Assembly: GCA_002784465.1 (NCBI GenBank)
Contig: PFLE01000004.1
Span: 8,494 to 72,493 of the forward strand
Direction of reading: 5' to 3'
DNA from: Candidatus Shapirobacteria bacterium CG_4_10_14_0_8_um_filter_39_15
GTDB lineage: Bacteria > Patescibacteriota > Microgenomatia > UM-FILTER-39-15
DNA: 64,000 nt
The position numbers were made by a program, and so were the translations under genes. Position 1 is the first letter of the stretch. Every line of letters begins with the position of its first letter. The notes beneath the pieces were generated by a model. That model searched no databases. It was not told the DNA's origin and saw only the letters and a list, made by a program, of their open reading frames with translations. This document shows positions 851 through 56,184 of this stretch, in pieces.

Positions 851-948
851 GTCATCCTGAACATAGTGAAGGATCTAGGCTGAAAGCCGTAAACGCTTCG
901 CCAAGTCAGACTTGGTTTTGCTAGATTCCTCGCTACGCTCGGAATGAC
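851..948. repeat. Hairpin repeat family R, copy 1 (termini GTCATCCTGAAC ... GCTCGGAATGAC)
   Basis: Imperfect approximately 98-bp palindrome with nested inverted repeats (GAAGGATCTAG/CTAGATTCCTC and CAAGTCAGACTTG), lying between mreB and mreC. Confidence 0.8.
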
Positions 949-959
949 AAAAGAAAAAA

Positions 960-1733
960 ATGGAAAATACAAATAAGTCACCCATAAAAATATTCCTGAT
1001 ATTAATTTCCTTAAGTTTACTGATTTTTTTAGCTGACCGAGTTGGTATGTTGTCTTCTACCAAGGGTGTTCTGGAAAATATTTTTGTTCCGATTGAACGT
1101 TTTGTTTACCAGAAGAAAATTTCCTTGACTGTTGATTCCTCATCAGAAATCGCCCAATTACAAAAGGAAAACCGGAAACTGGTTAATCTGGTTGTTCAGT
1201 TGGAAACTTGTCAAAAAGAAAATAACGATATGCGCCGCCTGCTAAATGCGCCGTTGCCGTCGGAGTGGAAATTTCTGCCGGCCAAAATAATCGGTTTTAA
1301 TGAAGGAACAATTTTATTGGATAAAGGGTCGAATCAAAAACTTGGAAGCGGATCGATAGCTGTTTATGAAAATATTTATGTTGGGAAAATTTCCTATTTG
1401 GGAGAAAATTTTTCTCGGCTGATAACCCCCTTAAGTCCGTATTCCAAAATTTTGGCCGTTGTCAAGGATCCCCAGCAATCCGGATTTATCGCCCGCGGCT
1501 TGCTCATTTCCCAAAACAATAAACTCTATCTTCAAAAAATTTTACTGGAGGTTCATCCGCAAGTTAATGATTTGGTTCTGACTGATATACAAGGAGGATT
1601 GCCGCCGGATTTGCCGATTGGTAAAATCACGAAAATCAATAAAAAAGATAACGATATTTTTCAGGAGGCGGAAATCGAGCCGCTGGTCGGTTATCAGCGA
1701 ATAAGCAATCTTTTTTTAACCAATTTTGATTGA
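960..1733 (+). CDS. mreC: Rod shape-determining protein MreC
   Basis: 257 aa with an N-terminal TM helix and a coiled-coil, immediately downstream of mreB in the canonical mreBCD order. Confidence 0.8.
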   Translation: MENTNKSPIKIFLILISLSLLIFLADRVGMLSSTKGVLENIFVPIERFVYQKKISLTVDSSSEIAQLQKENRKLVNLVVQLETCQKENNDMRRLLNAPLPSEWKFLPAKIIGFNEGTILLDKGSNQKLGSGSIAVYENIYVGKISYLGENFSRLITPLSPYSKILAVVKDPQQSGFIARGLLISQNNKLYLQKILLEVHPQVNDLVLTDIQGGLPPDLPIGKITKINKKDNDIFQEAEIEPLVGYQRISNLFLTNFD

Positions 1734-2078
1734 ATGAACGCCTTTCTGATTTTTTTACTTTTCTTGATCGCCTGGAAAATGCCGGAAAAAATTTCTTTGA
1801 TCCTGGCCTTTTTGAGCGGTTTGACAATTGATCTTTTGTCCGGAACAACTTTGGGTTTTTCCTCTTTTATTTTTACCGCCGGAGTTTTTTTGGTTCTTCA
1901 ATATCGGCGGAAATTCAGTTTTTCTCATCCGTTAATTTTGCTTATCTTTTTTATTTTATTTAATTTTTCTTTACAATTGACAACCGGCAGCAAATTTTCC
2001 CTAATCGAACTAATCTTATTTTCTGTGGTTATTCAAGTGATTAATTTAGTTTTTTACCAACCGGAGATTAGATTGTGA
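1734..2078 (+). CDS. mreD: Rod shape-determining protein MreD (small polytopic membrane protein)
   Basis: 114 aa hydrophobic protein between mreC and the PBP2 gene, consistent with mreBCD-mrdA synteny. Confidence 0.65.
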   Translation: MNAFLIFLLFLIAWKMPEKISLILAFLSGLTIDLLSGTTLGFSSFIFTAGVFLVLQYRRKFSFSHPLILLIFFILFNFSLQLTTGSKFSLIELILFSVVIQVINLVFYQPEIRL

Positions 2079-3631
2079 ACAAAAGATATCTGCTTTTTTA
2101 TTCTTTATTAATAATCGGTTTTTTGATTTTGGTTGGTCGATTGGTTCAATTGACAATTATCGAAGGAGCGGTTAATCGGGGATCGGCGGACAATCAAAGA
2201 TTGCGTTTAAGAAAAATTTCCGCCTTAAGGGGTATTATTTACGACCGAAATGGTAATTCATTAGTCAGAAACACGCCGGTTTTTAAAATTTGTTCCGGAC
2301 AGCCTAATCAATGCCGGGAAATTGATCAACTGAAAGCTTTGCAGATGGAAGCCGCCAATCAAGATGCCAATTTAGTTATTGATAACGGGCGGCAATATCT
2401 TTATGGGCAAGCAACAGCTCATTTGTTAGGATATTTAAGTGAAGCGTCGGAAACCGAAGTGAGAAATGGGACGCGTGATGCGGGACAGAAAATAGGAAGA
2501 AGCGGGATGGAACAGCAATATAACCAAACATTAAAAGGAACGGACGGCGGAGAATTGGTGGAAGTTAATACTAATGGAGAAACCTTACGGGCAATCGGGA
2601 AAAAAGAGCCGGTGGCCGGTAAAGATCTTTATTTAACGGTTGATGCCAATTTGCAAAAGGTTGCTTATCAGGCATTAGAAGGAAAAAAGGGAGCGGTGGT
2701 TGCTTCCAATCCGAAAACTGGAGAAATATTAGCTCTAGTTTCTTCGCCAAGTTTTGATTCGTCGCAAATCGCTCAAGGCTTAAATGATTCGAATCTGCCG
2801 CTTTTTAATCGAGCTATTGGCGGGGTTTATCCGCCCGGGTCAACTTTCAAAATTATTGTGGCGGCAGCCGGTTTGGAAAGCGGAACCATCAATAGTCAGA
2901 TTTTGATCAATGACCCGGGTATTATTAATGTCAATGGCTATCATTACAGTAATTGGTATTTTACTCAATACGGAAAAACGGAAGGGTTAATTAATATCAC
3001 CACCGCGTTAAAAAGATCAACCGATACCTTCTTTTATCAACTGGGGGAAATGACTGGGGCGCCAAAAATTATTGATTGGGCAAAAAAATTCGGCGTTGGA
3101 AATTATACCGGTATTGATTTGGACGGGGAAACCACCGGATTTATGCCCGACCCGCAAACCGGAACCTGGTTTTTGGGCAACACTTATCATTTGTCAATCG
3201 GCCAGGGAGCTTTGGGATTAACGCCATTGCAGGTAAATCAAATGACGTCAGTGATCGCATCGGGGGGAAAACTTTGTAAGCCGACATTAATTTCAGATAA
3301 CCAGAATACCAGACAATCAGACTGCCAGAATATCGGAATAAAACCGGAGACAATAAAAATAATCACTGAAGGAATGAAAGAAGCGTGTTCAACCGGAGGG
3401 ACGGCCTTTCCTTTATTTGGTTTTCAGCCGGAAGTTGCCTGTAAAACCGGGACCGCGGAATATGGCGATCCTCAAGGAAAAACTCATGCCTGGTTAACCG
3501 CTTTCGCGCCCGCTGACAAACCGGAAATTGCGGTGACGGTTTTGGTTGAAGGAGGAGGAGGCGGTGGTGAAGGATCAGCCGTGGCCGCCCCGATTGCCAA
3601 AAAGGTTCTGGAAGAATACTTCAGAAAATAG
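2075..3631 (+). CDS. mrdA: Penicillin-binding protein 2 (transpeptidase)
   Basis: Carries SxxK (GSTFKII), SxN-like (YHYSNW) and KTG (KTGTAEY) transpeptidase motifs, with an N-terminal membrane anchor and a Gly-rich C-terminus. Confidence 0.85.
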   Translation: MNKRYLLFYSLLIIGFLILVGRLVQLTIIEGAVNRGSADNQRLRLRKISALRGIIYDRNGNSLVRNTPVFKICSGQPNQCREIDQLKALQMEAANQDANLVIDNGRQYLYGQATAHLLGYLSEASETEVRNGTRDAGQKIGRSGMEQQYNQTLKGTDGGELVEVNTNGETLRAIGKKEPVAGKDLYLTVDANLQKVAYQALEGKKGAVVASNPKTGEILALVSSPSFDSSQIAQGLNDSNLPLFNRAIGGVYPPGSTFKIIVAAAGLESGTINSQILINDPGIINVNGYHYSNWYFTQYGKTEGLINITTALKRSTDTFFYQLGEMTGAPKIIDWAKKFGVGNYTGIDLDGETTGFMPDPQTGTWFLGNTYHLSIGQGALGLTPLQVNQMTSVIASGGKLCKPTLISDNQNTRQSDCQNIGIKPETIKIITEGMKEACSTGGTAFPLFGFQPEVACKTGTAEYGDPQGKTHAWLTAFAPADKPEIAVTVLVEGGGGGGEGSAVAAPIAKKVLEEYFRK

Positions 3632-4548: not shown

Positions 4549-4585
4549 ATTGTTATAATTGTTAGATTGTTATAATGTTAGAATG
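4548..4585. repeat. AT-rich TTGTTATA / TTGCTATA motif element (copy upstream of dprA)
   Basis: GATTGTTATAATTGTTAGATTGTTATAATGTTAGAATG. Related copies occur at 5676-5760, 31498-31586 and 53687-53731. Confidence 0.6.
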
Positions 4586-5670
4586 TGACGAATGAAGAGA
4601 AAAAATATTGGATTGGGTTTTCCTGCGTGCCGGGAATTGGGCCAAAGAAATTTAAAACTTTATTAAAATATTTCGGGTCGGCGGAGAAGGCCTGGAAAGG
4701 GGACTTACGGGAAGTTGGATTTAAGGAAGAATCCATTAGGAATTTTAATAATTTTAGAGAAAAGTTTGACTTTTCTTCGTATTTCCTTCGGTTAGAAAAA
4801 CTGGGTGTAAATAGCCTAATACTAGAGGATAAAAATTACCCAGAAAGTTTGAAACAGCTGGAGGATGCCCCCTTTGTGATTTACCTGTTGGGAGAAATTT
4901 TACCGTCTGATGAATTGGCAATTGGAATTGTGGGAACCAGAAAGATTACGGGCTATGGAAAACAGGTGACCGAGAGTTTGACGGCCGATTTAGTCAGTAA
5001 TGGTTTAACAATCGTTTCCGGTTTGGCCTATGGAGTGGATTACGCGGCTCACTCAACCGCATTGGAAATGGGCGGCCGAACCATCGGGGTTTGGGCCGGC
5101 GGTTTGGATACGGTTAATGATGGATTTAGAAAATCTTTGGTGGAAAAAATTTTGAAGCAAAAACAGGGAACGATTATTTCCGAATATCCTTTAGGTTTTG
5201 AGCCGCGGCGGACGACTTTTCCCCAAAGAAACCGAATTATTTCCGGCTTGTCATTGGGAGTTTTGGTCACTGAAGCAGCCGAGGACTCGGGTTCCCTAAT
5301 AACCGCCAAATGTGCCGTAGAACAAGGACGAAAAGTTTTTGCTGTCCCGGGTCCAATTACTTCCTCGTTAAGTGCCGGTACCGCGAAGCTTCTAAAAGAA
5401 AAAGCAATTTTAGTTTATAATGTTAAAGATATTCTGGATGAAATTAATATCGCGGTTAGGGAAAAGGGGCTAGCGGCGAGGGAGATATTACCAGAGAACG
5501 AGAACGAGGAAAAAATTCTGGCGTCGTTGAAAAATGAGAACCGAAACATTGACGAGATTGCTAAAATAACTAGAATAGAAATAAGCCAACTTTCAGGGAT
5601 AATGGCGATTCTGGAATTAAAAGGTATAGTGGTAAATTTAGGGGGATCCGTTTTTGGTTTAGGAAGATAG
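4585..5670 (+). CDS. dprA: DNA processing protein DprA (Smf)
   Basis: Rossmann-like DprA core (GIVGTRKITGYGKQ ... VSGLAYGVDYAAH ... AVPGPI) plus a C-terminal wHTH. Confidence 0.85.
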   Translation: MTNEEKKYWIGFSCVPGIGPKKFKTLLKYFGSAEKAWKGDLREVGFKEESIRNFNNFREKFDFSSYFLRLEKLGVNSLILEDKNYPESLKQLEDAPFVIYLLGEILPSDELAIGIVGTRKITGYGKQVTESLTADLVSNGLTIVSGLAYGVDYAAHSTALEMGGRTIGVWAGGLDTVNDGFRKSLVEKILKQKQGTIISEYPLGFEPRRTTFPQRNRIISGLSLGVLVTEAAEDSGSLITAKCAVEQGRKVFAVPGPITSSLSAGTAKLLKEKAILVYNVKDILDEINIAVREKGLAAREILPENENEEKILASLKNENRNIDEIAKITRIEISQLSGIMAILELKGIVVNLGGSVFGLGR

Positions 5671-5675: not shown

Positions 5676-5760
5676 GATTGCTATATTGCTATATTGCTAT
5701 ATTGTTAGCCTGCGGGTAGAAAATAACAATATAACAATCGTAACAATATAACAATTATTG
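5676..5760. repeat. AT-rich TTGCTATA motif element forming a long imperfect inverted repeat (dprA-topA intergenic)
   Basis: GATTGCTATATTGCTATATTGCTATATTGTTAGCC, a loop, then AACAATATAACAATCGTAACAATATAACAATTATTG. Confidence 0.6.
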
Positions 5761-5761: not shown

Positions 5762-7771
5762 ATGGATTTAATTATAGTAGAATCACCAACAAAAGCGCGA
5801 ACGTTATCAAGATTCCTGGGGTCTGATTATCAGATCGAAGCCACCATGGGCCATATCCGTGATTTGCCGCAAAAAAAGTTTGCCATTAAAACCGATAAGG
5901 ATTTTGAACCGGAATATGCGGTTGTTCCCGGAAAAGAAGAAACCATTAAAAGATTGCAAACCTTAGCCAAAAAGGCTGGTAAAATTTATCTGGCAACAGA
6001 CCCCGATCGCGAGGGAGAAGCAATCGCATGGCATGCTCGCATTGCCTGCGAAAATCCGAAATCCGAAGCACGAAATTCGAAATTTGTGAGAGCAACCTTT
6101 CACGAAATTACTAAGACGGCAATTGAACACGCGCTGAAAAACCCACGTGATATTGATATGGCCCTAGTTAATGCCCAGCAGGCGAGGAGAGTTTTGGATC
6201 GGATTGTCGGTTACAAACTCTCGCCTCTTTTGTGGTTTAAAATCCGCAAGGGTTTATCGGCAGGTAGAGTCCAAACTGTCGCGGTCCGTTTAATCGTCGA
6301 GCGGGAAAGAGAAATTGAAAAATTCATTACAGTAGAATATTGGGAAATTTTCGTGGGTTTGAAAAAACATTTGGGCGGGATGATGCCGGATGCCTCGATT
6401 TTTAATGCCAAACTAATTTCTGAAAACGGCCAAAAATTGGAATTGCATAATCAGCAAGAATCGGATATTCGGGTAAGTGAGTTAAATGACGCTGGTTATG
6501 AAGTCCAAAATATTGAGAAAAAACTGGCCAAAAGACCGCCGCCCCCGCCATTTACGACTTCGACTTTACAACAGCAAGCCGCCAATCGTTTGGGTTGGCC
6601 GGCTAAAAAAACGATGAGCGTTGCCCAAAGTCTTTATGAAAAAGGTTTAATTACTTATCACCGGACCGATTCGACTAATTTGGCAATGGAGGCGGTGATT
6701 GCCGCCAGAGAATTTATTAAACAAAAATACGGAGAGAATTTTTTACCCGAAAAACCAAGGTTTTACAAAACAAAATCAAAAGTAGCGCAGGAAGCGCATG
6801 AAGCGATACGTCCAACTGAAGTTGGGTGGGAAGCGGGAAGCGGGAAGCTGCTTGCCCTGAGCGGAGTCGAAGGGGAAGTTGGATACGATGAACAAAAATT
6901 ATACGATTTGATTTGGAAAAGATTTACGGCCTGTCAAATGAGCGAGGCAGTTTTTGATGAGACAAAGTTATCAGTCTTGGCTACATCTAAAACTAACCAT
7001 TATGATTTGGAAACCTTGGGAAGAATAATCAAATTTGCCGGCTGGTTAACTTTGTACGGTAAGGGCGAGAGTGACGAAGACGGGCAATTGCAACTACCAG
7101 AATTGTTTATCGGCGATGAATTAGATTTGGTGAAAGTGAACCCGCTACAGAAATTTACCAAACCGCCGGCGAGATATAACGAGGCTTCTTTAATTAAAAC
7201 TTTGGAAGAATACGGAATTGGCCGGCCGTCAACTTATGCCCCGACGATTTCCACAATTCAAGACCGGATGTATGTTGAAAAAACAGAGAATAAATTTTCC
7301 CCAACTTCCTTGGGAATAGCGGTTAATGATTTCCTGCTGGAATATTTTCCGGACATTTTTGATTATCAATTTACTGCCCACATGGAAGACGATTTGGATG
7401 AAATTGCCAACGGAAAAAAGGAATGGGTGCCGGTAATTAGAGAATTTTTCGAACCATTTAACACGAAGTTGACCAGTGTTTCCAAAGTTTCCGAAAGAGT
7501 GGCTGTCGAAACGGAAGTCACAGACGAAAAATGTCCGCAGTGCGGCGCGCCCCTGGTAGTTCGTTTAGGCCGTTATGGTAAATTTCTTTCCTGCTCAAAA
7601 TTCCCGGAATGTAAATTCACGAAACCTTTCATAAAAGAAGCCGGTTTTAATTGTCCAAAATGCGGCGCACCGGTGGTTTTAAGAAAAACTAAAAAAGGGA
7701 AAACTTTTTACGGTTGTTCCAAATGGCCTAAGTGTGATTTTGCCACCTGGCGTAAACCAAACGTCAACTGA
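5762..7771 (+). CDS. topA: DNA topoisomerase I
   Basis: Toprim N-terminus (IIVESPTKARTL), a catalytic domain, and two C-terminal zinc ribbons (CPQCGAPLVVRLGRYGKFLSCSKFPEC and CPKCGAPVVLRKTKKGKTFYGCSKWPKC). Confidence 0.92.
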   Translation: MDLIIVESPTKARTLSRFLGSDYQIEATMGHIRDLPQKKFAIKTDKDFEPEYAVVPGKEETIKRLQTLAKKAGKIYLATDPDREGEAIAWHARIACENPKSEARNSKFVRATFHEITKTAIEHALKNPRDIDMALVNAQQARRVLDRIVGYKLSPLLWFKIRKGLSAGRVQTVAVRLIVEREREIEKFITVEYWEIFVGLKKHLGGMMPDASIFNAKLISENGQKLELHNQQESDIRVSELNDAGYEVQNIEKKLAKRPPPPPFTTSTLQQQAANRLGWPAKKTMSVAQSLYEKGLITYHRTDSTNLAMEAVIAAREFIKQKYGENFLPEKPRFYKTKSKVAQEAHEAIRPTEVGWEAGSGKLLALSGVEGEVGYDEQKLYDLIWKRFTACQMSEAVFDETKLSVLATSKTNHYDLETLGRIIKFAGWLTLYGKGESDEDGQLQLPELFIGDELDLVKVNPLQKFTKPPARYNEASLIKTLEEYGIGRPSTYAPTISTIQDRMYVEKTENKFSPTSLGIAVNDFLLEYFPDIFDYQFTAHMEDDLDEIANGKKEWVPVIREFFEPFNTKLTSVSKVSERVAVETEVTDEKCPQCGAPLVVRLGRYGKFLSCSKFPECKFTKPFIKEAGFNCPKCGAPVVLRKTKKGKTFYGCSKWPKCDFATWRKPNVN

Positions 7772-7789
7772 CAAGGTTAGACCTTGTCA
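7769..7789. repeat. REP-like 21-bp perfect palindrome TGACAAGGTTAGACCTTGTCA (copy 1; overlaps the topA TGA stop and the RAYT stop)
   Basis: Exact palindrome read directly from the sequence. Confidence 0.9.
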
Positions 7790-8502
7790 CTAATAGTATC
7801 AGCGTTGTCGAGAGCGAATTTACCTAATAGTTCTTCAGAATTTCCCGCATAGTCTTCAATAAATTTTTTATAAGAATTTATTTCTTTAGGAATAAGAAGA
7901 TTGGTGGAATCGAAATAATCAAGAATAATTTTTGGCTTAATCCAATCGGCAGATTTATTGCCTAGATAATAATTATAACTGGAGTAGGGAGAATTGACAG
8001 GGTTAAATCCTTTATTCGATAGTTCTTTAGGATTGAGATGAATATATCGAGATAAATGTAATAGATAAGAATCTTCCTGAATTAAAGCTGCCTTAAAGGC
8101 TCCTTGGAAAAGATGCCCAACTCTTTTATATCGACTATTGAAATACATAGAATAAGTTGTTAAAAGTCTTCTTAGTAATTTAGTCATTCCGTCTAAGGTC
8201 AATTGTTGTATGAGTAAATGAAAATGGTTCGGCATAAGACAATAGGCTAGTAAGATAACTTCGTTTTTTAGATTTTGGAGCGGTCGTAATCTGACAGGGT
8301 TAAACCCTGTCAGGATAAGATTAGCAAGTGGGTGTTGTTTTTGGTCGTTTTTGGTTTGCTCGGAGAGATAATACTTTAGTAGATGTAAAAAAACTCGATA
8401 ATCTTGGTCATCTAAAAAAATGTTACGTTTTTCAACTCCTCGATTGTAAACATGGTAGAATCCGTTTTCCACATACTGCTTAATAATATTTCTGGAGGGC
8501 AT
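7777..8502 (-). CDS. REP-associated tyrosine transposase (RAYT; IS200/IS605 TnpA-like Y1 HUH enzyme)
   Basis: HUH motif (LMPNHFHLLIQ) and the catalytic-Tyr region (SRYIHLNPKE) match the RAYT signature (YIHxNPV). The gene is bracketed by two copies of the 21-bp palindrome TGACAAGGTTAGACCTTGTCA. Confidence 0.8.
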   Translation of the reverse strand: MPSRNIIKQYVENGFYHVYNRGVEKRNIFLDDQDYRVFLHLLKYYLSEQTKNDQKQHPLANLILTGFNPVRLRPLQNLKNEVILLAYCLMPNHFHLLIQQLTLDGMTKLLRRLLTTYSMYFNSRYKRVGHLFQGAFKAALIQEDSYLLHLSRYIHLNPKELSNKGFNPVNSPYSSYNYYLGNKSADWIKPKIILDYFDSTNLLIPKEINSYKKFIEDYAGNSEELLGKFALDNADTISDKV

Positions 8503-8518: not shown

Positions 8519-8539
8519 TGACAAGGTTAGACCTTGTCA
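8519..8539. repeat. REP-like palindrome TGACAAGGTTAGACCTTGTCA (copy 2; 17 bp upstream of the RAYT start)
   Basis: Exact palindrome read directly from the sequence. Confidence 0.9.
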
Positions 8540-10281: not shown

Positions 10282-10302
10282 TGACAAGGTCTAACCTTGT
10301 CG
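10282..10302. repeat. REP-like palindrome variant TGACAAGGTCTAACCTTGTCG (copy 3; opposite orientation with a CTA centre)
   Basis: Read directly; lies downstream of the polysaccharide deacetylase gene. Confidence 0.85.
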
Positions 10303-10466: not shown

Positions 10467-12035
10467 ATGGCAGGCAAAAGGACAATTGACTTTACGGTTT
10501 TGGTCGATCAATATCTCCATCATGATGGTTGGAAAGCTAAAGCGACTTCTAATTCCAATTATTCCCTGTCTGGTCTAATTTCTCATACTTCGGCTTCGGT
10601 CTTGGCAAATTATGCCTTACAGAATATTTATTCACCTGCTGCCCGTAAAGCTCACGAACAAGGGATAATTCATATTCATGATTTGGCTCACTCTTTAGTC
10701 GGTTATTGTGCCGGCTGGTCGCTACAAAAATTATTAATGCAGGGATTCGGCGGGGTTGACGGGCAAATTGAAACTAAACCGGCAGCCCATTTTTCCACGG
10801 CGGTTCAGCACGTAGTTTATTTTCTAAAATCGATGTATCAGGAATGGGCGGGAGCACAGGCTTTTTCTTCTTTTGACACGATAATGGCCCCGTTTATTTT
10901 TTATGATGAATTAACTTACTCGCAAGTTTACCAAGAAATCCAAAAACTGGTCTATTCTATTAATTTGCCTAACCGCTGGGGATTTGAAATGACTTTTTCC
11001 AATTTAACTTTTGACTGGATTGTTTCTAATGATTTGGCTGACCAGCCGGCAATTATTGGCGGAAAATTAATGAAGAAAAAATATAAGGAATTTCAGAAAG
11101 AAGCAGACATGATCAACCGGGCTTTTTTGGAAGTAATGCTGAAAGGTGATAAGAATGGCCGGCCGTTTACTTTCCCAATTCCGACTTACAATATTACCAA
11201 AGAGTTTTTTGAAACCAATGGCGACAATCAAAAATTATTATTTCAGGTGACAGCAAAATATGGCTTACCGTATTTTCAAAATTATATTGGGTCAGGTTTA
11301 GATCCTTCTTCTATCCGGGCGATGTGCTGCCGGTTAAATATGAATTTAAATGAATTAATGAAGCAGCCGGGGAATCTTTGGGCAAAAGGGGATTCAACCG
11401 GATCGGTGGGGGTAGTGACGATTAATTTGAACCGACTTGCCTGGGAAGGGGCTAGCGGCAAGGGGCGAGCGGCTAGGGAAGAAAATGCCAAAAAGAAATT
11501 TTTTAAGCTGCTCAAAAAATATATTAATATTTCTGCCGATTCGTTGGAGAAAAAAAGAGAAGTAATCGAAAAAAGTATGAAAGACGGTTTGATGCCTTAT
11601 TCTAAATATTATTTGGGAACTTTTAGAAATCATTTTTCCACTATTGGGGTTTGCGGCGGTAATGAGGCCTGTTTGAATCTTCTGGGTCAGGATTTGACGA
11701 CTCCGGAAGGACAGAAATTTATCCAGGAAACCTTGAATTTTATGAAAGAGGAGATGGTTAAAATACAAAAAAAGACTGGTCATTTGTATAATTTGGAAGC
11801 GACCCCGGCCGAATCAACCGCTTACCGTTTTGCCCTGTTGGACCAGAAACTTTGTTCAGGAATAAAACTGGCAGGATCTTCTGATTCACCTTATTTGACT
11901 AACTCAACTCAACTGCCGGTAGATTTTAGTTCAGATCTTTGGGAAGCTCTCAATTTACAAAATGAAATTCAGGCGGCTTATACCGGCGGGACAATTTTCC
12001 ATACATTTTTAGGAGAAGAAATGGAAGATTGGTAA
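10467..12035 (+). CDS. nrdD: Anaerobic ribonucleoside-triphosphate reductase NrdD (class III), main body, terminated by an in-frame TAA
   Basis: Class III RNR catalytic core. The ORF ends ...GEEMEDW with TAA at 12033-12035, and the glycyl-radical domain continues in the same frame 9 nt later. Confidence 0.8.
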   Translation: MAGKRTIDFTVLVDQYLHHDGWKAKATSNSNYSLSGLISHTSASVLANYALQNIYSPAARKAHEQGIIHIHDLAHSLVGYCAGWSLQKLLMQGFGGVDGQIETKPAAHFSTAVQHVVYFLKSMYQEWAGAQAFSSFDTIMAPFIFYDELTYSQVYQEIQKLVYSINLPNRWGFEMTFSNLTFDWIVSNDLADQPAIIGGKLMKKKYKEFQKEADMINRAFLEVMLKGDKNGRPFTFPIPTYNITKEFFETNGDNQKLLFQVTAKYGLPYFQNYIGSGLDPSSIRAMCCRLNMNLNELMKQPGNLWAKGDSTGSVGVVTINLNRLAWEGASGKGRAAREENAKKKFFKLLKKYINISADSLEKKREVIEKSMKDGLMPYSKYYLGTFRNHFSTIGVCGGNEACLNLLGQDLTTPEGQKFIQETLNFMKEEMVKIQKKTGHLYNLEATPAESTAYRFALLDQKLCSGIKLAGSSDSPYLTNSTQLPVDFSSDLWEALNLQNEIQAAYTGGTIFHTFLGEEMEDW

Positions 12036-12044
12036 TCGGCTAAA

Positions 12045-12290
12045 GTGTTAGTCAAAAAAATCGCCGAAACCACAAAAATTCCCTATTTTACCATTACCCC
12101 GACTTTTTCTGTTTGCAAAAAAGATGGTAGAATGAAAGGCAAAGTTGAGAAATGTCCCAAGTGCGGAGGCGAAACGGAAATCTACTCAAGAATAGTCGGC
12201 TACCTGCGTCCTTTAAACCGTTGGAATCCGGGCAAGGCGGAAGAATTTAAAGAAAGAAAAACGTTTGAGATTACGAGTCATTCTGAGTGA
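12045..12290 (+). CDS. nrdD: NrdD C-terminal glycyl-radical / zinc-ribbon domain (same frame as 10467..12035, separated by one TAA)
   Basis: Carries CPKCG and the RIVGYL glycyl-radical motif. Its last codons and the stop lie inside a GTCATTCTGAG hairpin repeat. Confidence 0.7.
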   Translation: MLVKKIAETTKIPYFTITPTFSVCKKDGRMKGKVEKCPKCGGETEIYSRIVGYLRPLNRWNPGKAEEFKERKTFEITSHSE

Positions 12291-12387
12291 CCCTTACAGG
12301 GGTAAACGAAGAATCTAGCAAGGTCAAGCTAAGCTTGACTAAGCGCGCTGCTAGATCCTTCTCCGGCAAAGCCGGATTAGGATGACT
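12277..12387. repeat. Hairpin repeat R, copy 2
   Basis: GTCATTCTGAGTGACCCTTACAGGGGTAAACGAAGAATCTAGC ... GCTAGATCCTTC ... GGATGAC. It supplies the last codons and stop of the nrdD C-terminal ORF. Confidence 0.75.
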
Positions 12388-12395
12388 AACAAAAT

Positions 12396-12818
12396 ATGTT
12401 AGTTAAATTTAAAAAACTAAAACCGGAAGCGTCATTGCCTAGATATGCTTACCCGGGAGATACAGGAATGGATATTTTTTCTGCCGAGGATTTTATTTTA
12501 AATCCCGGAGAATGGCATAGTTTTTCTACCGGTCTTGCTTCGGAAATTTCCCCGGGGTTTTTTATAAGATTTGCTCCCAAAAGCGGGTTGGCGGTTAAAC
12601 ACGGGGTTGATACTTTGGCGGGGGTAATTGATAGTACTTATCGAGGAGAATGGATGGTGGTTTTGGTTAATCATGGTAAAGAGCCAAAAGAATTTAAAAT
12701 TGGAGATAAACTTGCCCAGGCAATTCTGCAACGGTTTGAAATGACAGAAAGATTAGAAGTTAGCGAATTATCCGGCTCGCAACGCGGTCAAGGCGGGTTT
12801 GGAAGCACTGGTAAGTAA
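12396..12818 (+). CDS. dut: dUTP diphosphatase
   Basis: dUTPase motifs (GLAVKHGVDTLAGVIDSTYRGE ... SQRGQGGFGSTGK). Confidence 0.9.
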   Translation: MLVKFKKLKPEASLPRYAYPGDTGMDIFSAEDFILNPGEWHSFSTGLASEISPGFFIRFAPKSGLAVKHGVDTLAGVIDSTYRGEWMVVLVNHGKEPKEFKIGDKLAQAILQRFEMTERLEVSELSGSQRGQGGFGSTGK

Positions 12819-12834
12819 CGATAATAACTATAGG

Positions 12835-12855
12835 TGACAAGGTTAGACCTTGTCA
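12835..12855. repeat. REP-like palindrome TGACAAGGTTAGACCTTGTCA (copy 4; between dut and thyX)
   Basis: Exact palindrome read directly from the sequence. Confidence 0.9.
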
Positions 12856-12929
12856 ATAAAACACTTTAATTCCTCGAACATTTGTGATATAAACGCAGAG
12901 GACATTAACATTAAAAAAGGAGGCTTCAA

Positions 12930-13649
12930 GTGAAAATCCTAAAAGGACAGGGGAGTTTTGAGATATATGAAACTCCAGAAGAGTTGAGAGTTCAGTTGTT
13001 GAAGATCGAAAGGGTCGGCCGAACGTGTTATCAGTCAGAAAGAGAACCGATAACGATGGAAACAGCGATCAAGTTTAGCCGGATGTTGGCCAGTCGTCAT
13101 CACTATTCCCTATGGAATTTTGGATTTATGACCGTAAAGTTCGTGCATTGTTCGCGGGGGTTCACTCACGAGTTAGTTCGCCATCGTCTTGCCGCTTATG
13201 CACAGGAATCAACTAGATACGTGGATTATTCTGGTGGGGATGAACCAGATTTGAAGCATTTCGAGCTTAAGTGTATTGTTCCTCCGCATCATGACGAGAA
13301 TGAGAAAATCACACTTGATGATGGACGAATAATGACTTGTTTAGAGATGCTGGGGGAAACAGAAAGGTTCTATCGAGGATTACGTTCTGCTGGTTGGCTT
13401 CCTGATGCCGCGCGGCAGCTTTTACCAACTGCTATCAAGGCAGACATCTGGATCGAGACGAACTTTACCGAATGGCGGCACATTTTCGAAATGCGAACAC
13501 AGCTAGCCGCCCACTGGGAAATCCGTGCCGTCATGTGTGCCTTGCTTGAAGCGGTTCAAAAGATTATACCTGTCATATTCGATGATTTTGTTTTGGCCGG
13601 TACGGACAAGAATGGTCTGCGATATTACGAGCTGGCAAAACAGTCATGA
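12930..13649 (+). CDS. thyX: Flavin-dependent thymidylate synthase ThyX
   Basis: ThyX RHRxxxxxxxS signature (LVRHRLAAYAQESTRY). Confidence 0.9.
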   Translation: MKILKGQGSFEIYETPEELRVQLLKIERVGRTCYQSEREPITMETAIKFSRMLASRHHYSLWNFGFMTVKFVHCSRGFTHELVRHRLAAYAQESTRYVDYSGGDEPDLKHFELKCIVPPHHDENEKITLDDGRIMTCLEMLGETERFYRGLRSAGWLPDAARQLLPTAIKADIWIETNFTEWRHIFEMRTQLAAHWEIRAVMCALLEAVQKIIPVIFDDFVLAGTDKNGLRYYELAKQS

Positions 13650-13717
13650 AGTCTGCAATGCGCAGTAATTTTATAGATACTTATAAAGTTGCTGCGCTTT
13701 TTTATATAATAGTTAAA

Positions 13718-14383
13718 ATGAAAGGAATTTATCTTGCTTTTGAGGGAGGAGAAGGTTTTGGAAAATCAACTCAGGCAAAAATATTGTTTGAAAAACTAAA
13801 AGAGAAATTTCCCAAAAGAAAAATTATTTTAACTCGGGAGCCGGGAGGCAGTTCAATTGCCGAAGAAGTAAGAGAAATAATATTAACTTCAAGAAAAGAC
13901 GAGCAAATCCAATTATTAACTGAAGCCTATTTGTTTGCAGCTGCCAGAGCCCAATCGCTTCGGGAAAGTGTTGTTCCGGTTTTGGAGGAAGGCGGAATTG
14001 TAATTTCCGATCGTACTTTTTATTCCAGCATTGCCTACCAAGGTTTTGGCAGGGAATTAGGATGGAAAAAAGTCTGGAAAATTAATCAGGAAGCAGTCGG
14101 TAAAATAAAGCCTGATTTAGTTTATTTATTTGATGGTGACCCAAAAATTGGTTTAGATAGAATTTGCAAAAATAAAAGAGAAACAAATCGTTTAGATAAA
14201 GAAAAACTCGAATTTCATAAGCGGGTAAGAAAAGGATTTTTATTTTTATGCGATAAAGAACCAAAACGTTTTGTGACCATTGATGGTTGTTCAAGTATTG
14301 AGAAGCAATCCGAAATTATTTGGGCACAGTTTTGCAGATTTAATAGACGATCGGCGTATGATTCTGCAAAGATGGTACAATAA
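13718..14383 (+). CDS. tmk: Thymidylate kinase
   Basis: P-loop [15 protein letters not shown] and the LID/REPGG region. The start is placed at MKGIY; the ORF track extends upstream to 13646, overlapping the end of thyX. Confidence 0.85.
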
Positions 14384-14387
14384 TAAT

Positions 14388-15743
14388 ATGGAAAATAAAA
14401 TTTTGCAACTAATTAAAAAAGAAGAACAAAGACAAGCTGATACGCTTATGATGATTCCCTCGGAAAATTATACTTATCCGGAAGTCCGGCAGGCGGTTGG
14501 GTCGGTTTTAATGCATAAATATGCGGAAGGCCAGCCTGGAAGAAGATATTATCAAGGAAATTCGGTGGCGGACCAGGTGGAAAGCGAATGCGAGAGATTA
14601 GCCCTGGAAGCCTTTGGATTAAATTCCGATCAGTGGGGTGTTAATGTCCAACCCTATTCCGGCTGTCCGGCTAATCTGGCGGTTTATAACGGAATACTCG
14701 ATATTGGAGATCGGATATTGGCTATGTATCTGCCTGATGGCGGGCATTTATCCCACGGGTGGCAAACTCCGGAGAAAAAAATCACTTTTGTTTCCAAAAT
14801 CTGGCAGGTGGAATTTTATCATGTAGATCCGAAAACCAGAGTTTTTGATTATGACCAAATTGAAAAACAAGCTTTAAAATTTAAACCAAAATTAATTATT
14901 TCCGGCGGAACGGCTTATCCACGGGAAATTGACTATCAACGTCTGTCGGGAATTGCAAAGTCTGTCGGAGCGTATTATATGGCCGATATTGCCCATGAAG
15001 CCGGATTAATTGCCGGTGGAGCCAATAAATCTCCTTTCCCTTATGCTGATGTGGTGACCATGACAACCCATAAAACTTTACGCGGTCCAAGAGGAGCGAT
15101 TATTATTTGTAAAAAAGAATTATTGGAAGCAATTGATCAGTCAATATTTCCTGGGTTGCAGGGAGGACCGCATTTACACACGATCGCCGGAATCGCCATT
15201 GCTTTGGAAAAAACCAAAACACCCGAATTTAAAAATTATGCTTTCCAAACAGTTAAGAACGCTCAAAGATTAGCCCAAAGACTAACGATTAAAGACTATG
15301 ACGTCGTCAGCGGGGGAACGGACAAACACCTTGTCTTGCTTGATTTAAGAAATAAAAATATCAGCGGTTGGTTTGTGGCTTGGGCTTTGGAAAAAGCGGG
15401 AATTATTATGAACCGAAACACCGTGCCAAACGACACCGGTTCGCCATTTTATCCATCTGGTTTACGAATGGGAACACCGGTCTTGACGGTGAGGGGGATG
15501 CGCGAAAAGGAGATGGATTTAATCGCGAGGTGGATAGATGAAGTGATACAGCACCTGGGTCCGAGAGAAATGCCGGAGAAGCAGCCCGCCTTGCTCGCCT
15601 CGCGGCGAAGCGGGCGGCGAGGCAGGGAAGCGAGAAGTAAGATGCGGGAGGAATTTAAAAAAGAAATTGAAAAAGATGAGTTTTTAAATAATATTAGTCT
15701 TCAGGTCAAAGACCTCTGCAATAAATTCCCCATACCAGGATAA
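14388..15743 (+). CDS. glyA: Serine hydroxymethyltransferase
   Basis: SHMT N-terminus ([37 protein letters not shown]) and the PLP-lysine region ([12 protein letters not shown]). There is a C-terminal extension containing a GA-rich repeat, and the stop lies within a hairpin repeat. Confidence 0.9.
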
Positions 15744-15795
15744 GTCATCCTGAGTGTTTATTCTGTAAAGGGGAGCGAAGGATCTAGCGTCAGCG
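15744..15795. repeat. Hairpin repeat R, copy 3 (left half only)
   Basis: GTCATCCTGAGTG ... GCGAAGGATCTAGCG, located after glyA. Confidence 0.6.
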
Positions 15796-15819
15796 TTAAA
15801 TAACAATTATTATTTTATT

Positions 15820-16089
15820 GTGTTTGTTTATATTCTTACTAATTTTACCAATACGGTTTTGTATACGGGAGTAACGAATAATTTGGAGCGAAGAATTTGG
15901 GAGCATAAAAACCATCTTTTTAAGAACTCTTTTACTGATAAATATAAAATATATAAACTACTTTGGTATCAGGAATTTAATTCTCCGGAAGAAGCAATAA
16001 CCGCCGAAAAGAAAATAAAAGGTTGGACCAGACAAAAGAAGATAAATTTAATAATGGAATTAAATCCAGAATTTAAAGAATTAGGTTGA
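15820..16089 (+). CDS. GIY-YIG nuclease family protein (standalone, 89 aa)
   Basis: GIY-YIG core (VYILTN ... LYTGVTNNLERRIWEHK), flanked on both sides by GTCATYCTGAG-type hairpin repeats. Confidence 0.75.
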   Translation: MFVYILTNFTNTVLYTGVTNNLERRIWEHKNHLFKNSFTDKYKIYKLLWYQEFNSPEEAITAEKKIKGWTRQKKINLIMELNPEFKELG

Positions 16090-16092
16090 TAA

Positions 16093-16208
16093 AGAAGATT
16101 CTTCGTTACACTCTGAATGACCTAAAGAGAAGATTCTTCACTTTGTTCAGAATGACACCGATTCGTCATCCCGAGCACATTCGACAAGCTCAGTGCGAGG
16201 GATCTTCC
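16093..16208. repeat. Hairpin repeat R, copy 4 (rearranged: two right halves then one left half)
   Basis: Two ...CTGAATGAC / ...CAGAATGAC right halves followed by GTCATCCCGAGC ... GGGATCTTCC, between the GIY-YIG gene and folD. Confidence 0.65.
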
Positions 16209-16228
16209 AAATATGGTAAAATCAAAAG

Positions 16229-17092
16229 ATGGCCATTATTTTTGACGGAAAAAAATTAGCGGGAGAATTGGCAGAAAAATTAGATCGTGATGTTACTGAA
16301 TTTAAAGTTAAAACCGGAATTACTCCTAAATTGGTGAGTATTTTAGTGGGTGATGACCCAGCCTCGGTGCTTTATACCAAAATAAAACAAAAAAAGGCAG
16401 AGAGCGTGGGGATAGACTTTATTAAGAAAGAATTTCCGGAGAATGTTGAGCCGGAGGAATTGATTTCTGTTATAGAACAGCTAAACAAGGATAATTCAGT
16501 GCATGGAATTATGATTCAGCTTCCACTTCCCCGACAATCCGTAATTCGTAATTCGCAATCCGTAATCGTAGATACAATCAATCCTCAAAAAGACGTTGAT
16601 TGTTTGACTTCTGTAAATCTGGAATTGGTTAAACAAGGGAAACCTCGATTTCTTCCGGCGACCGTTCAAGCTATTTTTAAGATTATTAACCAAATACCCC
16701 GAGGTGCAGGTACGAATTCACCTTTAAGGTGTGAACGTAGTTATTGCGTAGTGGGATCGAGTGGAATGGTGGGGAAACCGCTGGCGGATTATCTGGAAAA
16801 TCAAGGATATCAGGTCAATCTTTGTGATGAATTTACCCCCGATATTTCCGTTTTTACCAAACAAGCCGATATTTTGATTTCTGCGACCGGAATTCCCAAT
16901 CTGATTAAAAAAGAAATGGTTAAGGCCGGTGTAGTTGTAATTGACGTTGGTTCGCCGGTAGGGGATGTGGATTTTGAAAATGTTAGTCAGGTGGCGTCAT
17001 TTATTACCCCTGTTCCTGGTGGTGTCGGGCCGTTAACCGTAATTTCGCTTCTTGAAAATACTCTTCAAGCATGCTATAATGCGCTTGCTTGA
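16229..17092 (+). CDS. folD: Bifunctional methylenetetrahydrofolate dehydrogenase / cyclohydrolase
   Basis: FolD motifs (VGDDPASVLYTKIK, HGIMIQLPLP, VVGSSGMVGKPLA). Confidence 0.88.
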   Translation: MAIIFDGKKLAGELAEKLDRDVTEFKVKTGITPKLVSILVGDDPASVLYTKIKQKKAESVGIDFIKKEFPENVEPEELISVIEQLNKDNSVHGIMIQLPLPRQSVIRNSQSVIVDTINPQKDVDCLTSVNLELVKQGKPRFLPATVQAIFKIINQIPRGAGTNSPLRCERSYCVVGSSGMVGKPLADYLENQGYQVNLCDEFTPDISVFTKQADILISATGIPNLIKKEMVKAGVVVIDVGSPVGDVDFENVSQVASFITPVPGGVGPLTVISLLENTLQACYNALA

Positions 17093-17290
17093 CAGAATCA
17101 ATAGCGATTCTGATTCTTGCAGCCCGTAAGGGCAGTAGAAAATTGTTAAGCCGCGTAGTTTAACGGCAAAACAACGAAAGTTATGTAGGTTCGAATCCTA
17201 TCACGGCTTAGCATTTAGCAAAAGATTACTCACACTCGATATTGCTCCCTGAAACCATAATCGAGTGGGGGAATAAGGGAGCATTTACAA

Positions 17291-18010
17291 ATGGAAATTA
17301 GTTTAAAAGAATTATTGGAAGCCGGTTGTCATTTTGGCCACCAAACCGTCCGTTGGAATCCAAAAATGAAGCCGTATATTTTTACGGCGCGCGAAGGCGT
17401 GCATGTTTTTGATTTGGTTAAAACAAAAGAAGGACTAGAGGCCGCCTGCGACATTGCCAAAACTACGGTGAGCCAAGGTGGATTGATTCTTTTTGTCGGT
17501 TCCAAAAGACAAGCCAGAGATATTGTCAGCGAGGTTTGTCAAAAAATTGGTATGCCTTATGTGACGCAAAGATGGATGGGGGGAATGATTACCAATTGGG
17601 ACCAAGTAAAAAAAAGCGTCGAAAAAATGGCCCAGTTAAAAGAAGGCCGGGAAAAAGGCGAATATAAAACCTATACTAAAAAAGAACAATTATTAATTGA
17701 CCGGCAAATTATGAAACTGGAAAAATTCTTTGGCGGCGTCGCCGGCTTGAAGGAATTGCCGCAAGCGCTTTTTGTGGTTGATGCCAAAAGGGAACTTTCC
17801 GCGGTGAAAGAAGCCAACCGCCGGGGAATTCCGGTTATTTCCATGGTTGATACTAATTCCGACCCCGATTTAATTAATTATGTCATCCCGGTTAATGACG
17901 ACGCAGTGGCGTCAATAAAATTGATTGTGGAAAAAATGGGAGAGTCTATTCAAGAGGGAATAAAATTAAACAAGGACAAGAAACCTGCAAACACTGAAAC
18001 ACTGAAATGA
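17291..18010 (+). CDS. rpsB: 30S ribosomal protein S2
   Basis: S2 N-terminus (LLEAGCHFGHQTVRWNPKM) in the rpsB-tsf order, with a C-terminal tail containing an AACACTGAA repeat. Confidence 0.92.
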   Translation: MEISLKELLEAGCHFGHQTVRWNPKMKPYIFTAREGVHVFDLVKTKEGLEAACDIAKTTVSQGGLILFVGSKRQARDIVSEVCQKIGMPYVTQRWMGGMITNWDQVKKSVEKMAQLKEGREKGEYKTYTKKEQLLIDRQIMKLEKFFGGVAGLKELPQALFVVDAKRELSAVKEANRRGIPVISMVDTNSDPDLINYVIPVNDDAVASIKLIVEKMGESIQEGIKLNKDKKPANTETLK

Positions 18011-18471
18011 TAACCGTATCCGTTGATTTAATAAAAAAATTAAGAGAAGAGACAAATGCGCCGGTGATGGAGTGTAAATCGGCGTTGCAGGAAGCCAATG
18101 GAGATATAGAAAAAGCTAAAGAAATTCTCAAGAAAAAAGGGATGGAAAGAGCCGATAAAAAAGCCAGCCGGGAAACCAAAGCTGGTCTTGTCGAATCTTA
18201 TACCCATAACAACGGCCGGGTCGGGGTGATGGTGGAGGTTTTTTGTGAAACGGATTTTGTCGCCAGAAATGAAGAGTTTAAAAAACTTTGCCACGAATTA
18301 GCCTTGCAAATCGCTTCAATGAATCCGGAATCGGTTGCCGATTTATTTGCTCAACCATGGATTCGGGATGAAAGCAAAACGATTGAACAGCTGGTAAAAG
18401 AAACAATCGGAAAACTGGGAGAAAATATTAAAGTGAACAGATTTGTGAGATTTGAGCTTGGAGTTGACTAG
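18007..18471 (+). CDS. tsf: Elongation factor Ts (short form)
   Basis: UBA-like N-terminus (LIKKLREETNAPVMECKSALQEANGDIEKAKEILKKKG) and a dimerisation core. Confidence 0.85.
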   Translation: MITVSVDLIKKLREETNAPVMECKSALQEANGDIEKAKEILKKKGMERADKKASRETKAGLVESYTHNNGRVGVMVEVFCETDFVARNEEFKKLCHELALQIASMNPESVADLFAQPWIRDESKTIEQLVKETIGKLGENIKVNRFVRFELGVD

Positions 18472-52832: not shown

Positions 52833-52974
52833 TTAGAACCTCCTTATAATAAAGTGAAAGAACAACGATTTTTGTGATTCTGAGAAGAAGTATACCAGAA
52901 AAGGGCGAGAAGTCAAGAAGGCCCTTCGACTACTCAGGGTAAACAAGAGAGCAGAAAGGAAGAGAATGATTTTG

Positions 52975-54946: not shown

Positions 54947-55289
54947 TATTTTAAAGCCAATTGCTCGCTTTCTTCATTTGGAAGAAAAAAAGTTGGAGGA
55001 AAGAAAGAAAACTTTTGAAAAAGAAGATCCATTTTCCAATTCCGATCGGGTATCGGATAACGCGGCGATTGATACGGATGCGGCCGAGCAGTTTGATCAC
55101 TCCCGCATGGAGGCGATGAAAAAGGAAATTGATCGGAAATTGATTGGAATTAAAAAGGCATTAGCAATGATTAAAATTGGTAAGTATGGGATTTGTGAAT
55201 CCTGTGGAAAGATGATTGACACCGATCGGTTGATGATTAAGCCGGAAGCGACGTTGTGCGTTAAGTGCGAAAAAGAGAAAGAGAAATAA
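54918..55289 (+). CDS. DksA/TraR-family C4 zinc-finger protein
   Basis: C-terminal CxxC-17-CxxC finger (CESCGKMIDTDRLMIKPEATLCVKC) after a coiled-coil. Confidence 0.75.
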   Translation: MLKQNLFPANILKPIARFLHLEEKKLEERKKTFEKEDPFSNSDRVSDNAAIDTDAAEQFDHSRMEAMKKEIDRKLIGIKKALAMIKIGKYGICESCGKMIDTDRLMIKPEATLCVKCEKEKEK

Positions 55290-55376
55290 AACCATTGTTA
55301 TTTCGAGCGAAGCGAGAAACAAGCTTTGCTTATATTGCTAAAACCGCCAGGAGCGGTTTTTTGATACAATAAATAT

Positions 55377-56123
55377 ATGGAGCCAAAGATTATTTTTGAA
55401 GATGATTATCTGCTTGTTTTGGACAAACCTTCTGGTTGGGTAGTTAATGATGCGGAAACTACTAAAGGGCAAAAAACTGTACAGGACTGGCTTCGCCAGA
55501 ATTTTCAATTTTCAATTTTCAGTTTTCAAGAAATGCGGAATGGAATTGTGCATCGTTTAGATAAGGAAACTTCTGGAATATTGCTGGTTGCCAAAACACC
55601 GGAAGCATTTGTGGAACTCCAACGCCAATTCAAGGAAAGAATTGTCAAAAAAACCTATTTTGCTTTGGTGCATGGGAAGGTTGAACCGGCTGAAGGGGAA
55701 ATCAACGCGCCGGTAGGCAGAACTTCTTGGAATCGCGAGCGGTTTGGTATTACCTTGGAAGGAAAAGAAGCCAAGACAAAGTATAAAGTTCTATCCCGCT
55801 TCACGCGTCTTGTTTACCCTGTAAGGGCTTCTTGTTTCTCTTTAGTTGAGCTTTATCCCGAGTCAGGAAGAACACATCAGATACGGGTTCATATGCAATA
55901 CCGCGGTTATCCGCTGGTCGGCGATGAATTTTATGCCGGAAAAAAAACCGCGGCCGAAGACCGGAAATGGTGCCCGAGAGTTTTTCTCCATGCCGCCAAG
56001 ATTTCTTTCTTGAATCCAAAAACTGGTAAACCAGTTGAATTTAAATCGTCATTACCAGAGGAATTGGAAAACGTCTTGTCGTCATTCCGAGTGAAATCCT
56101 TACAGGGTAAACGAGGAATCTAA
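55377..56123 (+). CDS. RluA-family pseudouridine synthase
   Basis: Catalytic HRLDKETSGILLVAK motif. The C-terminal tail is encoded by a hairpin repeat, and an in-frame AATTTTC x3 repeat encodes NFQFSIFSFQ. Confidence 0.85.
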   Translation: MEPKIIFEDDYLLVLDKPSGWVVNDAETTKGQKTVQDWLRQNFQFSIFSFQEMRNGIVHRLDKETSGILLVAKTPEAFVELQRQFKERIVKKTYFALVHGKVEPAEGEINAPVGRTSWNRERFGITLEGKEAKTKYKVLSRFTRLVYPVRASCFSLVELYPESGRTHQIRVHMQYRGYPLVGDEFYAGKKTAAEDRKWCPRVFLHAAKISFLNPKTGKPVEFKSSLPEELENVLSSFRVKSLQGKRGI

Positions 56124-56184
56124 CGAAGTCAAGTCAGACTTGGCGAAGCGTTGCCACTAGATCCTTCGCTACGCCCAGGATGAC
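56081..56184. repeat. Hairpin repeat R, copy 9 (translated as the RluA C-terminal tail)
   Basis: GTCATTCCGAGTGAAATCCTTACAGGGTAAACGAGGAATCTAACG ... CAAGTCAGACTTGG ... CTAGATCCTTCGCTACGCCCAGGATGAC. It shares modules with copies 1, 2 and 8. Confidence 0.8.

Follow-up and report, generated by a model that had tools for sequence, protein, structure and literature searches.

Hairpin repeats at gene ends in a Candidatus Shapirobacteria genome are probably recognition motifs of a resident Ssn-family nuclease

Single-domain GIY-YIG nucleases of the Ssn family (cd10448) are encoded by genes that are flanked by hairpin repeats, the NTS (CGTCATTCCCGCGMAVGCGGGAATCYRG) and the recognition motifs known as Ssn-related motifs or SRMs (Chenal et al. 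2025, Nat Commun; PMC11893778). The CGTC-tagged repetitive extragenic palindromes (REPs) form a superfamily that includes Neisseria dRS3 and Rickettsia RPE-4 and RPE-6, and were judged to be without a dedicated transposase (Di Nocera et al. 2013, BMC Genomics; PMC3733652). Here we analyse a stretch of 64,000 nucleotides (the window) from contig PFLE01000004.1 of a Candidatus Shapirobacteria metagenome-assembled genome (MAG) from Crystal Geyser, a member of the Patescibacteria or Candidate Phyla Radiation (CPR), in which hairpin elements are dispersed at the 3' ends of genes. In all likelihood the window carries an Ssn/SRM system, in which an open reading frame (ORF) of 89 codons at 15820-16089 (hereafter ssn), overlooked in the initial annotation, encodes an Ssn-family nuclease and the elements are inverted pairs of its recognition motif.

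Ssn proteins have a size of about 90-100 aa, and an SRM is an inverted repeat of 20-50 nt which forms a hairpin. SsnA recognises its hairpin only when the DNA is single-stranded, makes its cut a few nucleotides to the 5' side and does not bind RNA. In Neisseria meningitidis the three bases before the palindrome govern cutting, the C after it governs binding, and the enzyme lowers transformation by NTS-bearing DNA. Members of the family have been characterised experimentally from Neisseria, N. elongata, N. wadsworthii and Wolbachia, and the authors noted that the arrangement NTS-ssnA-NTS resembles an insertion sequence (IS) (PMC11893778). The CGTC-tagged REPs have an unpaired CGTC or TGTC (or CCTC) tag, AT-first stems of 8-9 bp, a loop of 4-5 nt and a 3-nt tail; they occur mostly as inverted dimers, often with structured spacers, downstream of genes and sometimes within them (PMC3733652).

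The protein encoded by ssn matches PF01541 with an E-value of 2e-16 (profile positions 3-78 of 78, residues 2-76) and thus constitutes a full-length GIY-YIG domain. Its AlphaFold model, built with 19 homologues, has a pLDDT of 94 and the GIY-YIG fold, and the best matches among solved structures are the UPF0213 protein BH0048, Slx1, the N-terminal domain of UvrC and I-TevI. A sequence search of the PDB returned weak UPF0213 matches only and no solved Ssn structure, and NCBIfam gave no specific family for the protein, only a sub-threshold match to a group-I-intron endonuclease. A tblastn search of a plasmid collection that includes two N. gonorrhoeae chromosomes found a single match in each of these; the gonococcal ORF shares 42% identity with the window protein over 86 residues (E 5e-22) and is surrounded by nine canonical NTS copies within 3.2 kb. 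Residues Y4, Y15 and E63, invariant across the 19 homologues, align with Y6, Y17 and E64 of SsnA, the comparison being made with the N. gonorrhoeae ORF and the catalytic residues numbered after N. meningitidis SsnA; mutation of these residues in SsnA abolishes activity (PMC11893778). At L071, one of the 80 homologous loci described below, TGTCATTCCCGCGAAGGCGGGAATCC, in essence the consensus of the NTS, comes directly after a homologue that is 53% identical in the best tblastn segment. Because of this homology, the NTS-surrounded gonococcal ORF and the NTS-like repeat at L071, we assign the gene to the Ssn homologues and the elements to the SRM dimers.

The motif GTCATYCYGAG occurs in the window with 11 exact matches against 0.01 expected from dinucleotide-preserving shuffles, and with 21 matches against 6.2 expected if one mismatch is allowed. 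The initial annotation placed elements at 851, 12277, 15744, 16093, 18471, 28252, 28738, 36715 and 56081, and element sequence was found at all nine sites. The shared ends, the inner repeats GAAGRATCYAG / CTRGATYCTTC and the swappable internal modules (CCTTACAGGGTAAACG three times, CAAGTCAGACTTGG and GCGAAGCGTTGC twice each) were likewise borne out, with element lengths of 62-110 nt.

The architecture of the elements turned out to differ from the one first proposed. Each unit consists of GTC, a 5-nt stem arm beginning with AT, GA, one to six inner pairs (usually two or three), a loop, the partners of the inner pairs, GA, the second stem arm and C, and 17 units in the window fit this pattern. 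GTC precedes the stem and C directly follows it in all 17; the position ahead of GTC mostly holds A or T (C in two units), the tail after the unit is CYA or CTT, and the stem reaches 9-10 positions only when both G·A pairs are counted. Loops measure 3-19 nt (3-4 nt in the short units) and are the place where the swappable modules reside.

Four stem variants (ATTCT, ATCCT, ATTCC and ATCCC) are each complementary to a partner in their own half. Pairing of the local 5-bp stems is Watson-Crick at 84 of 85 positions over the 17 units, whereas end-to-end pairing of the same blocks yields 42 Watson-Crick pairs, 9 G-T pairs and 9 mismatches in 60. The inner pairs also show compensatory changes (GC/GC, GT/AC, AC/GT, AT/GT, GCC/GGC, GAC/GTC, GCAC/GTGC, TCCGGC/GCCGGA). 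From this covariation it follows that the conserved structure is the hairpin within each half and not an end-to-end pairing, and the sequences first described as terminal inverted repeats belong to two distinct hairpin units, of which they are the outer halves. In a full element, a short spacer, palindromic or structured (CTAG...CTAG, CCAG...CTGG or CTTC...GAAG), separates a forward unit from the reverse unit that follows it, and the GTC tags face outward; the same holds for 6 of the 7 pairs of adjacent units in the window. All six intact dimers join two different stem variants.

The features are listed in window coordinates, with "SRM" standing for a candidate SRM and dimers given without strand:

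15820-16089, plus strand: ssn homologue encoding an 89-residue single-domain GIY-YIG protein, between glyA and folD
15744-15784, plus strand: forward SRM unit (formerly the third copy), 35 nt upstream of ssn, with stem ATCCT/AGGAT and a long loop
16097-16121, minus strand: reverse SRM unit (first part of the former fourth copy), 8 nt past the ssn stop, with one mismatch in the 5-bp stem
16132-16156, minus strand: second reverse SRM unit, downstream of ssn
16165-16204, plus strand: forward SRM unit with stem ATCCC/GGGAT, immediately upstream of folD
851-948: inverted SRM dimer between mreB and mreC; a structured spacer separates the forward unit (851-875) from the reverse unit (924-948)
12277-12386: inverted SRM dimer between nrdD and dut; the forward unit (12277-12315) carries the CCCTTACAGGGGTAAAC module in the loop, and the reverse unit spans 12354-12386
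18471-18541: inverted SRM dimer between tsf and frr; units 18471-18497 and 18517-18541
28252-28330: inverted SRM dimer between yqeY and ybeY, containing the yqeY stop; units 28252-28279 and 28306-28330
28738-28799: inverted SRM dimer between ybeY and dnaX; units 28738-28762 and 28773-28799
36715-36808: inverted SRM dimer making up the C-terminal 18 codons of cysS; the forward unit (36715-36763) is degenerate, and the reverse unit (36770-36808) has the NTS-like stem ATTCCCGC/GCGGGAAT
56081-56184: inverted SRM dimer making up the C-terminal tail of rluA; units 56081-56120 and 56160-56184
about 52874-52945: probable decayed SRM dimer beside tRNA-Leu, GTGATTCTGAG ... CTTCGACTACTCAGGGT, recognised by eye only

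The two irregular copies among the nine sites, read at first as a half element and a rearranged element and hence as signs of recombination, both flank the 89-residue GIY-YIG ORF. The ORF has a forward unit 35 nt upstream and, within 120 nt downstream, two reverse units followed by another forward unit; gene and units together form an SRM-ssn-SRM cassette.

This arrangement is not peculiar to the window. Homologues of ssn number 2149 at E<=1e-5, and 80 homologous loci were taken from a scan with one genome per species, which cover CPR, Gamma-, Delta- and Alphaproteobacteria, Clostridia, Bacteroidota, Ignavibacteriota, Planctomycetota, Verrucomicrobiota, Chloroflexota and Cyanobacteria. When a unit was defined as GTC plus a perfect 5-bp stem, a forward unit was present within 150 nt upstream at 60 of the 80 loci, a reverse unit downstream at 56 and both at 47, against a chance level per flank of about 4.4% estimated from the loci's own background. 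Among 120 gene-proximal units, a C directly follows the stem in 117, T or C precedes GTC in 109, and the GA..GA step is found in 94. The stem sequence varies by lineage (ATTCT, ATCCT, ATTCC, ATGCT, ATTGC, ATCCC, ATTTC and others), and the C-terminal tails DPSQAQDD, DSSVADSLRMT and DSSLRSE of homologues are translated reverse units. At least 11 of the 80 loci belong to Patescibacteria, besides the window itself, which extends the Ssn/SRM pairing to this group.

Two Bacteroidales MAGs carry the ssn homologue twice per genome on different contigs (L078 and L082; L068 and L084). The near-identical flanks of these pairs reach well past the repeats, which suggests that the gene may ride there on a larger duplicated or mobile segment. 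In a CPR relative (YbeY 50% identical), an SRM dimer of a different stem type, GTCATGCTGAA...CAGCATC with GTCATCCCGAA...CGGGATC, lies about 1.2 kb downstream of ybeY (L090 4000-4068 and L091 2007-2075).

The elements in the window are placed at or inside the ends of genes, in some cases as C-terminal tails, and each such placement first reported holds on inspection. The nrdD C-terminus reads ...TSHSE*, with the last codons and the stop supplied by the element at 12277; the glyA stop directly adjoins its element, the tsf stop shares 1 nt with its own, and the TGA stop of yqeY lies inside GTCATTCTGAG of the element at 28252. Element sequence also makes up the final 18 codons of cysS (element at 36715) and the final 14 codons of rluA (element at 56081). 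Relative to transcription, units are equally numerous in both orientations. At 7 of 8 inter-gene sites the next co-directional gene follows 9-25 nt downstream, and 47 nt separate it from the element at 56081; the host operons include rpsB-tsf-frr. This placement accounts for unusual C-terminal tails (HSE, SLRSG-like and similar) and for small ORFs that are spurious in annotations. The longest ORF after cysS begins at an ATG within the element's terminal GGAATGAC (36804-36808), with a second ATG about 24 nt downstream, and its annotated start may be a repeat artefact.

The family is not confined to the window, since one unit lies about 4.5 kb past the right end (L169 15838-15861), between a small ORF and gyrA and about 640 nt from a second, weak Y1_Tnp gene. 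In this solitary unit, GTCATTCTGAACTTGATTCAGAATC, the G·A step is replaced by Watson-Crick pairs, which results in a perfect 8-bp stem. The sequence flanking the window, about 18 kb, contains only this one further unit, which means that the local density (18 units in 64 kb) is not even.

Comparison with relatives provides insight into the history of individual sites. More distant relatives retain the order yqeY-ybeY-dnaX, and empty sites were found at both positions flanking ybeY: in L088 and L173 (YbeY 63-72% identical) both gaps are short and without elements, measuring 53 nt (yqeY|ybeY) and 17 nt (ybeY|dnaX) in L173, while the ybeY|dnaX gap of the window without its 62-nt element amounts to 24 nt. 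In L171 and L172 (YbeY 78-80% identical) the same sites hold quite different AT-rich palindromic inserts. From these empty gaps and different palindromes it follows that the lineage of the window gained its SRM dimers, at sites tolerant of palindromic insertions; they also bear on the question whether these repeats still move.

The window also contains a third palindromic family, which is AT-rich and built of ATTGCTATATTG / CAATATAACAAT units, at 5680-5757 between dprA and topA. An element similar to this palindrome occupies the yqeY|ybeY gap of L171 (1616-1721), and other AT-rich palindromes are found in the ybeY|dnaX gaps of L171 and L172.

In the initial annotation the elements were thought to act as terminators or 3' stabilisers, that is, mainly as RNA, with 3' hairpins that end transcription or shield the mRNA from 3' exonucleases. 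Such a role is known for some E. coli REPs. The elements must indeed be transcribed, because they lie right after or overlap the stops of co-directional genes; the stem covariation would fit an RNA hairpin as well, and many REPs are transcribed and may act as RNA (Di Nocera et al.; PMC3733652). However, no T tract follows any element, terminator-like calls number 21 against 20.5 expected with none on the elements in 11000-30000, and termination would be harmful where the next gene starts 9-25 nt downstream within an operon, as it mostly does. We consider terminators unlikely on these grounds; a side effect on mRNA stability may exist, but nothing speaks for it. The equal frequency of both unit orientations means that half of the units give the complementary sequence in RNA, and an Rfam scan of the window elements found no family at the gathering score or even at E<=1. 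A role at the RNA level would moreover explain neither why GTC and C are conserved and unpaired nor why a nuclease gene is linked to the units, and SsnA does not bind RNA (PMC11893778). Taken together, an action mainly as RNA appears improbable.

Mobile DNA offers two other explanations; the early description called the elements MITE-like or REP-like in architecture. Classical REPs, or their doublets (REPINs), are mobilised by a Y1 transposase of the REP-associated tyrosine transposase (RAYT) or IS200-like type, and the doublet architecture of the elements resembles REPINs. A PF01797 protein of 241 aa with HUH and Y motifs is encoded at 7777-8502 on the minus strand, and a second Y1 gene lies about 4 kb past the right end of the window. 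Yet the Y1 gene in the window is flanked by another 19-nt hairpin, GACAAGGTTAGACCTTGTC (7770-7788 and 8520-8538), more than 3.7 kb separate it from the nearest SRM unit, the unit tag is GTC and not GTAG, and in no species did Di Nocera et al. (PMC3733652) find CGTC repeats on the flanks of a Y1 gene; we regard mobilisation by a Y1 enzyme as very improbable. Even less credit can be given to miniature inverted-repeat transposable elements (MITEs), deletion derivatives of a conventional DDE insertion sequence that are moved in trans. Inverted ends, small size, the presence of several copies and intergenic sites would suit them, and the window holds an rve-type IS (20760-22026) and IS1595 fragments near 59.6-60.3 kb. 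Against this stand the terminal repeats of the IS (TGTAACAAGAAATCTCAATTTTGACAC...), which are unrelated to the GTCAT ends, and the flanks of the copies, where inspection revealed no target-site duplication; the covariation shows that each half is under selection as a hairpin, a constraint not required of MITE ends. Of the early description, the REP-like part stands, as modular palindromes at gene 3' ends, and the MITE-like part does not. A MITE of the resident rve IS, RAYT-mobilised REPs and an intrinsic terminator were each rejected after testing.

The GACAAGGTTAGACCTTGTC hairpin represents a second, unrelated hairpin-repeat system, of which a search returned 11 strand-hits against 0.01 expected. 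The palindrome copies that flank the Y1 gene share their orientation, and three solitary copies and one variant occur elsewhere (10283-10301, 12836-12854, 34418-34436 and 8293-8311). The rve IS encodes a helix-turn-helix domain and an rve integrase at 20825-21955 on the minus strand and is bounded by 47-nt imperfect terminal inverted repeats.

Several observations weigh against the identification of the window elements as SRMs. The published SRM string, HGTCWYN(0-2)YYVSBRHN(0-5)WNVSBRGN(0-2)RNCYNB, has no match in the window and matches within 1 kb of the gene at only 3 of the 80 loci, so that family membership of the units, as judged from sequence, would rest on their architecture and the homology of the gene and not on the operational motif of its authors. 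DNA folding of whole dimers favours an extended hairpin, and the z-scores are modest for some of them (-0.9 to -4.8); we gave covariation more weight than thermodynamic folding in deciding which pairing is conserved. The window's own strains, six contigs with the same genes, are 99.9% identical to it and carry the same elements and no empty sites, which makes them uninformative on recent gain or loss. With regard to the string, we note that it does match the Neisseria NTS consensus (checked by hand), that it excludes the tandem G·A step used by most relatives of the window protein, and that it is a heuristic built from 29 genomes (PMC11893778). Because of this heuristic nature, we treat the window units as a variant missed by the string and not as lying outside the family. 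Most close relatives use the tandem G·A hairpin that the published motif does not detect, and censuses made with that motif therefore probably undercount the Ssn/SRM system.

The initial annotation did not recognise the element from any described repeat family. The units do bear hallmarks of the NTS and SRMs and, in large part, of CGTC-tagged REPs, and the probable cognate nuclease gene lies in the window; the match to a catalogued element is to the SRM or CGTC-tagged REP and not to a MITE of an IS. Literature searches by motif strings had returned primers and unrelated sequences only. In this way a CPR repeat family that lacked an explanation is assigned to a system of known biochemistry, and a false lead of novelty is removed.

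The identification as an Ssn/SRM system stands on what was observed, namely the anatomy of the units, their covariation, the pan-bacterial association of gene and repeat, and the homology to a characterised enzyme family; the cleavage chemistry proposed for this organism is carried over by homology from the characterised enzymes. By analogy with these, a unit would fold when DNA becomes single-stranded, be it incoming transforming DNA or an intermediate of replication or repair. Ssn would then bind the folded hairpin with its 3' C and cut the same strand a few nucleotides 5' of the GTC tag, and would not act on duplex DNA, RNA or the opposite strand. The window encodes DprA (4585-5670), and at least part of the machinery for incoming single-stranded DNA is therefore present. 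One might speculate that the system limits recombination by self-like incoming single-stranded DNA, and, alternatively or in addition, that the SRM-ssn-SRM cassette is a selfish element of which the gene-less dimers are non-autonomous copies.

A more far-reaching view, which we put forward as a rather unlikely possibility and only as a whole, would combine two statements: that the GA-step units and ssn constitute a distinct and very widespread specificity class of Ssn, and that in this streamlined CPR genome the cassette is a still active selfish element. The GA class would then predominate in CPR, Clostridia and Bacteroidota and escape the published SRM motif, and gene-less heterodimers would insert at gene 3' ends via single-strand breaks made by Ssn. 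If this were true, Ssn would be the long-missing mobilising enzyme of CGTC-type REPs, beyond its part as a modulator of transformation. We know of no strand-transfer activity of Ssn.

Some further features of the window were noted. Between folD and rpsB, a tRNA-like sequence (17149-17209, plus strand) has acceptor, D and T arms and only 7 nt in the place of the anticodon arm; it scores 39 bits against the Rfam tRNA model, whose gathering score is 29, and is not called by ARAGORN. In this assembly the 607-aa nrdD gene is broken into 522 and 85 codons by an in-frame TAA at 12033-12035. The corresponding codon of the near-identical contig L001 is CAA (Gln), and a sequencing error, a pseudogene or a polymorphism between strains could account for the difference. 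At about 16535-16555, folD of the window contains a 21-nt in-frame tandem duplication (QSVIRNS/QSVIV) which is absent from L001.

Among the known systems, that of Chenal et al. comes closest. It shares with the window the single-domain GIY-YIG protein of about 90 aa with conserved catalytic Y, Y and E, 42% identity between the window protein and the gonococcal orthologue, the SRM-ssn-SRM layout, GTC 5' of the stem with C right after it and a YRG-like tail, and dispersed, almost wholly intergenic repeats. The host of the window system differs, as it is a Patescibacteria (CPR) MAG from a group absent from the main text of that paper. Differences also exist in the repeats: the Neisseria NTS has an 8-bp ATTCCCGC stem, whereas the window units have 5 bp, the tandem G·A and a few more pairs (usually two or three), and on the side of the window all six intact dimers mix stem variants and several elements overlap gene ends.

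The CGTC-tagged REPs resemble the window units in the unpaired GTC-type tag and AT-first stems, to some extent in short loops and a 3-nt tail, in being mostly inverted dimers downstream of genes that are sometimes read as protein, and in the lack of a link to Y1. In contrast to these REPs, the base before GTC in the window is mostly A or T, loops reach up to 19 nt through inserted modules, and a partner gene, ssn, can now be named and is present in the window. The REP/REPIN-RAYT systems, reportedly treated by Nunvar in 2010, Bertels and Rainey in 2011 and Ton-Hoang in 2012, parallel the window system in that the gene of a single-strand-specific nuclease is flanked by its own hairpins and accompanied by many gene-less inverted doublets. 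The two differ in fold and tag, which are HUH/Y1 and GTAG in the RAYT systems and GIY-YIG and GTC in the window.

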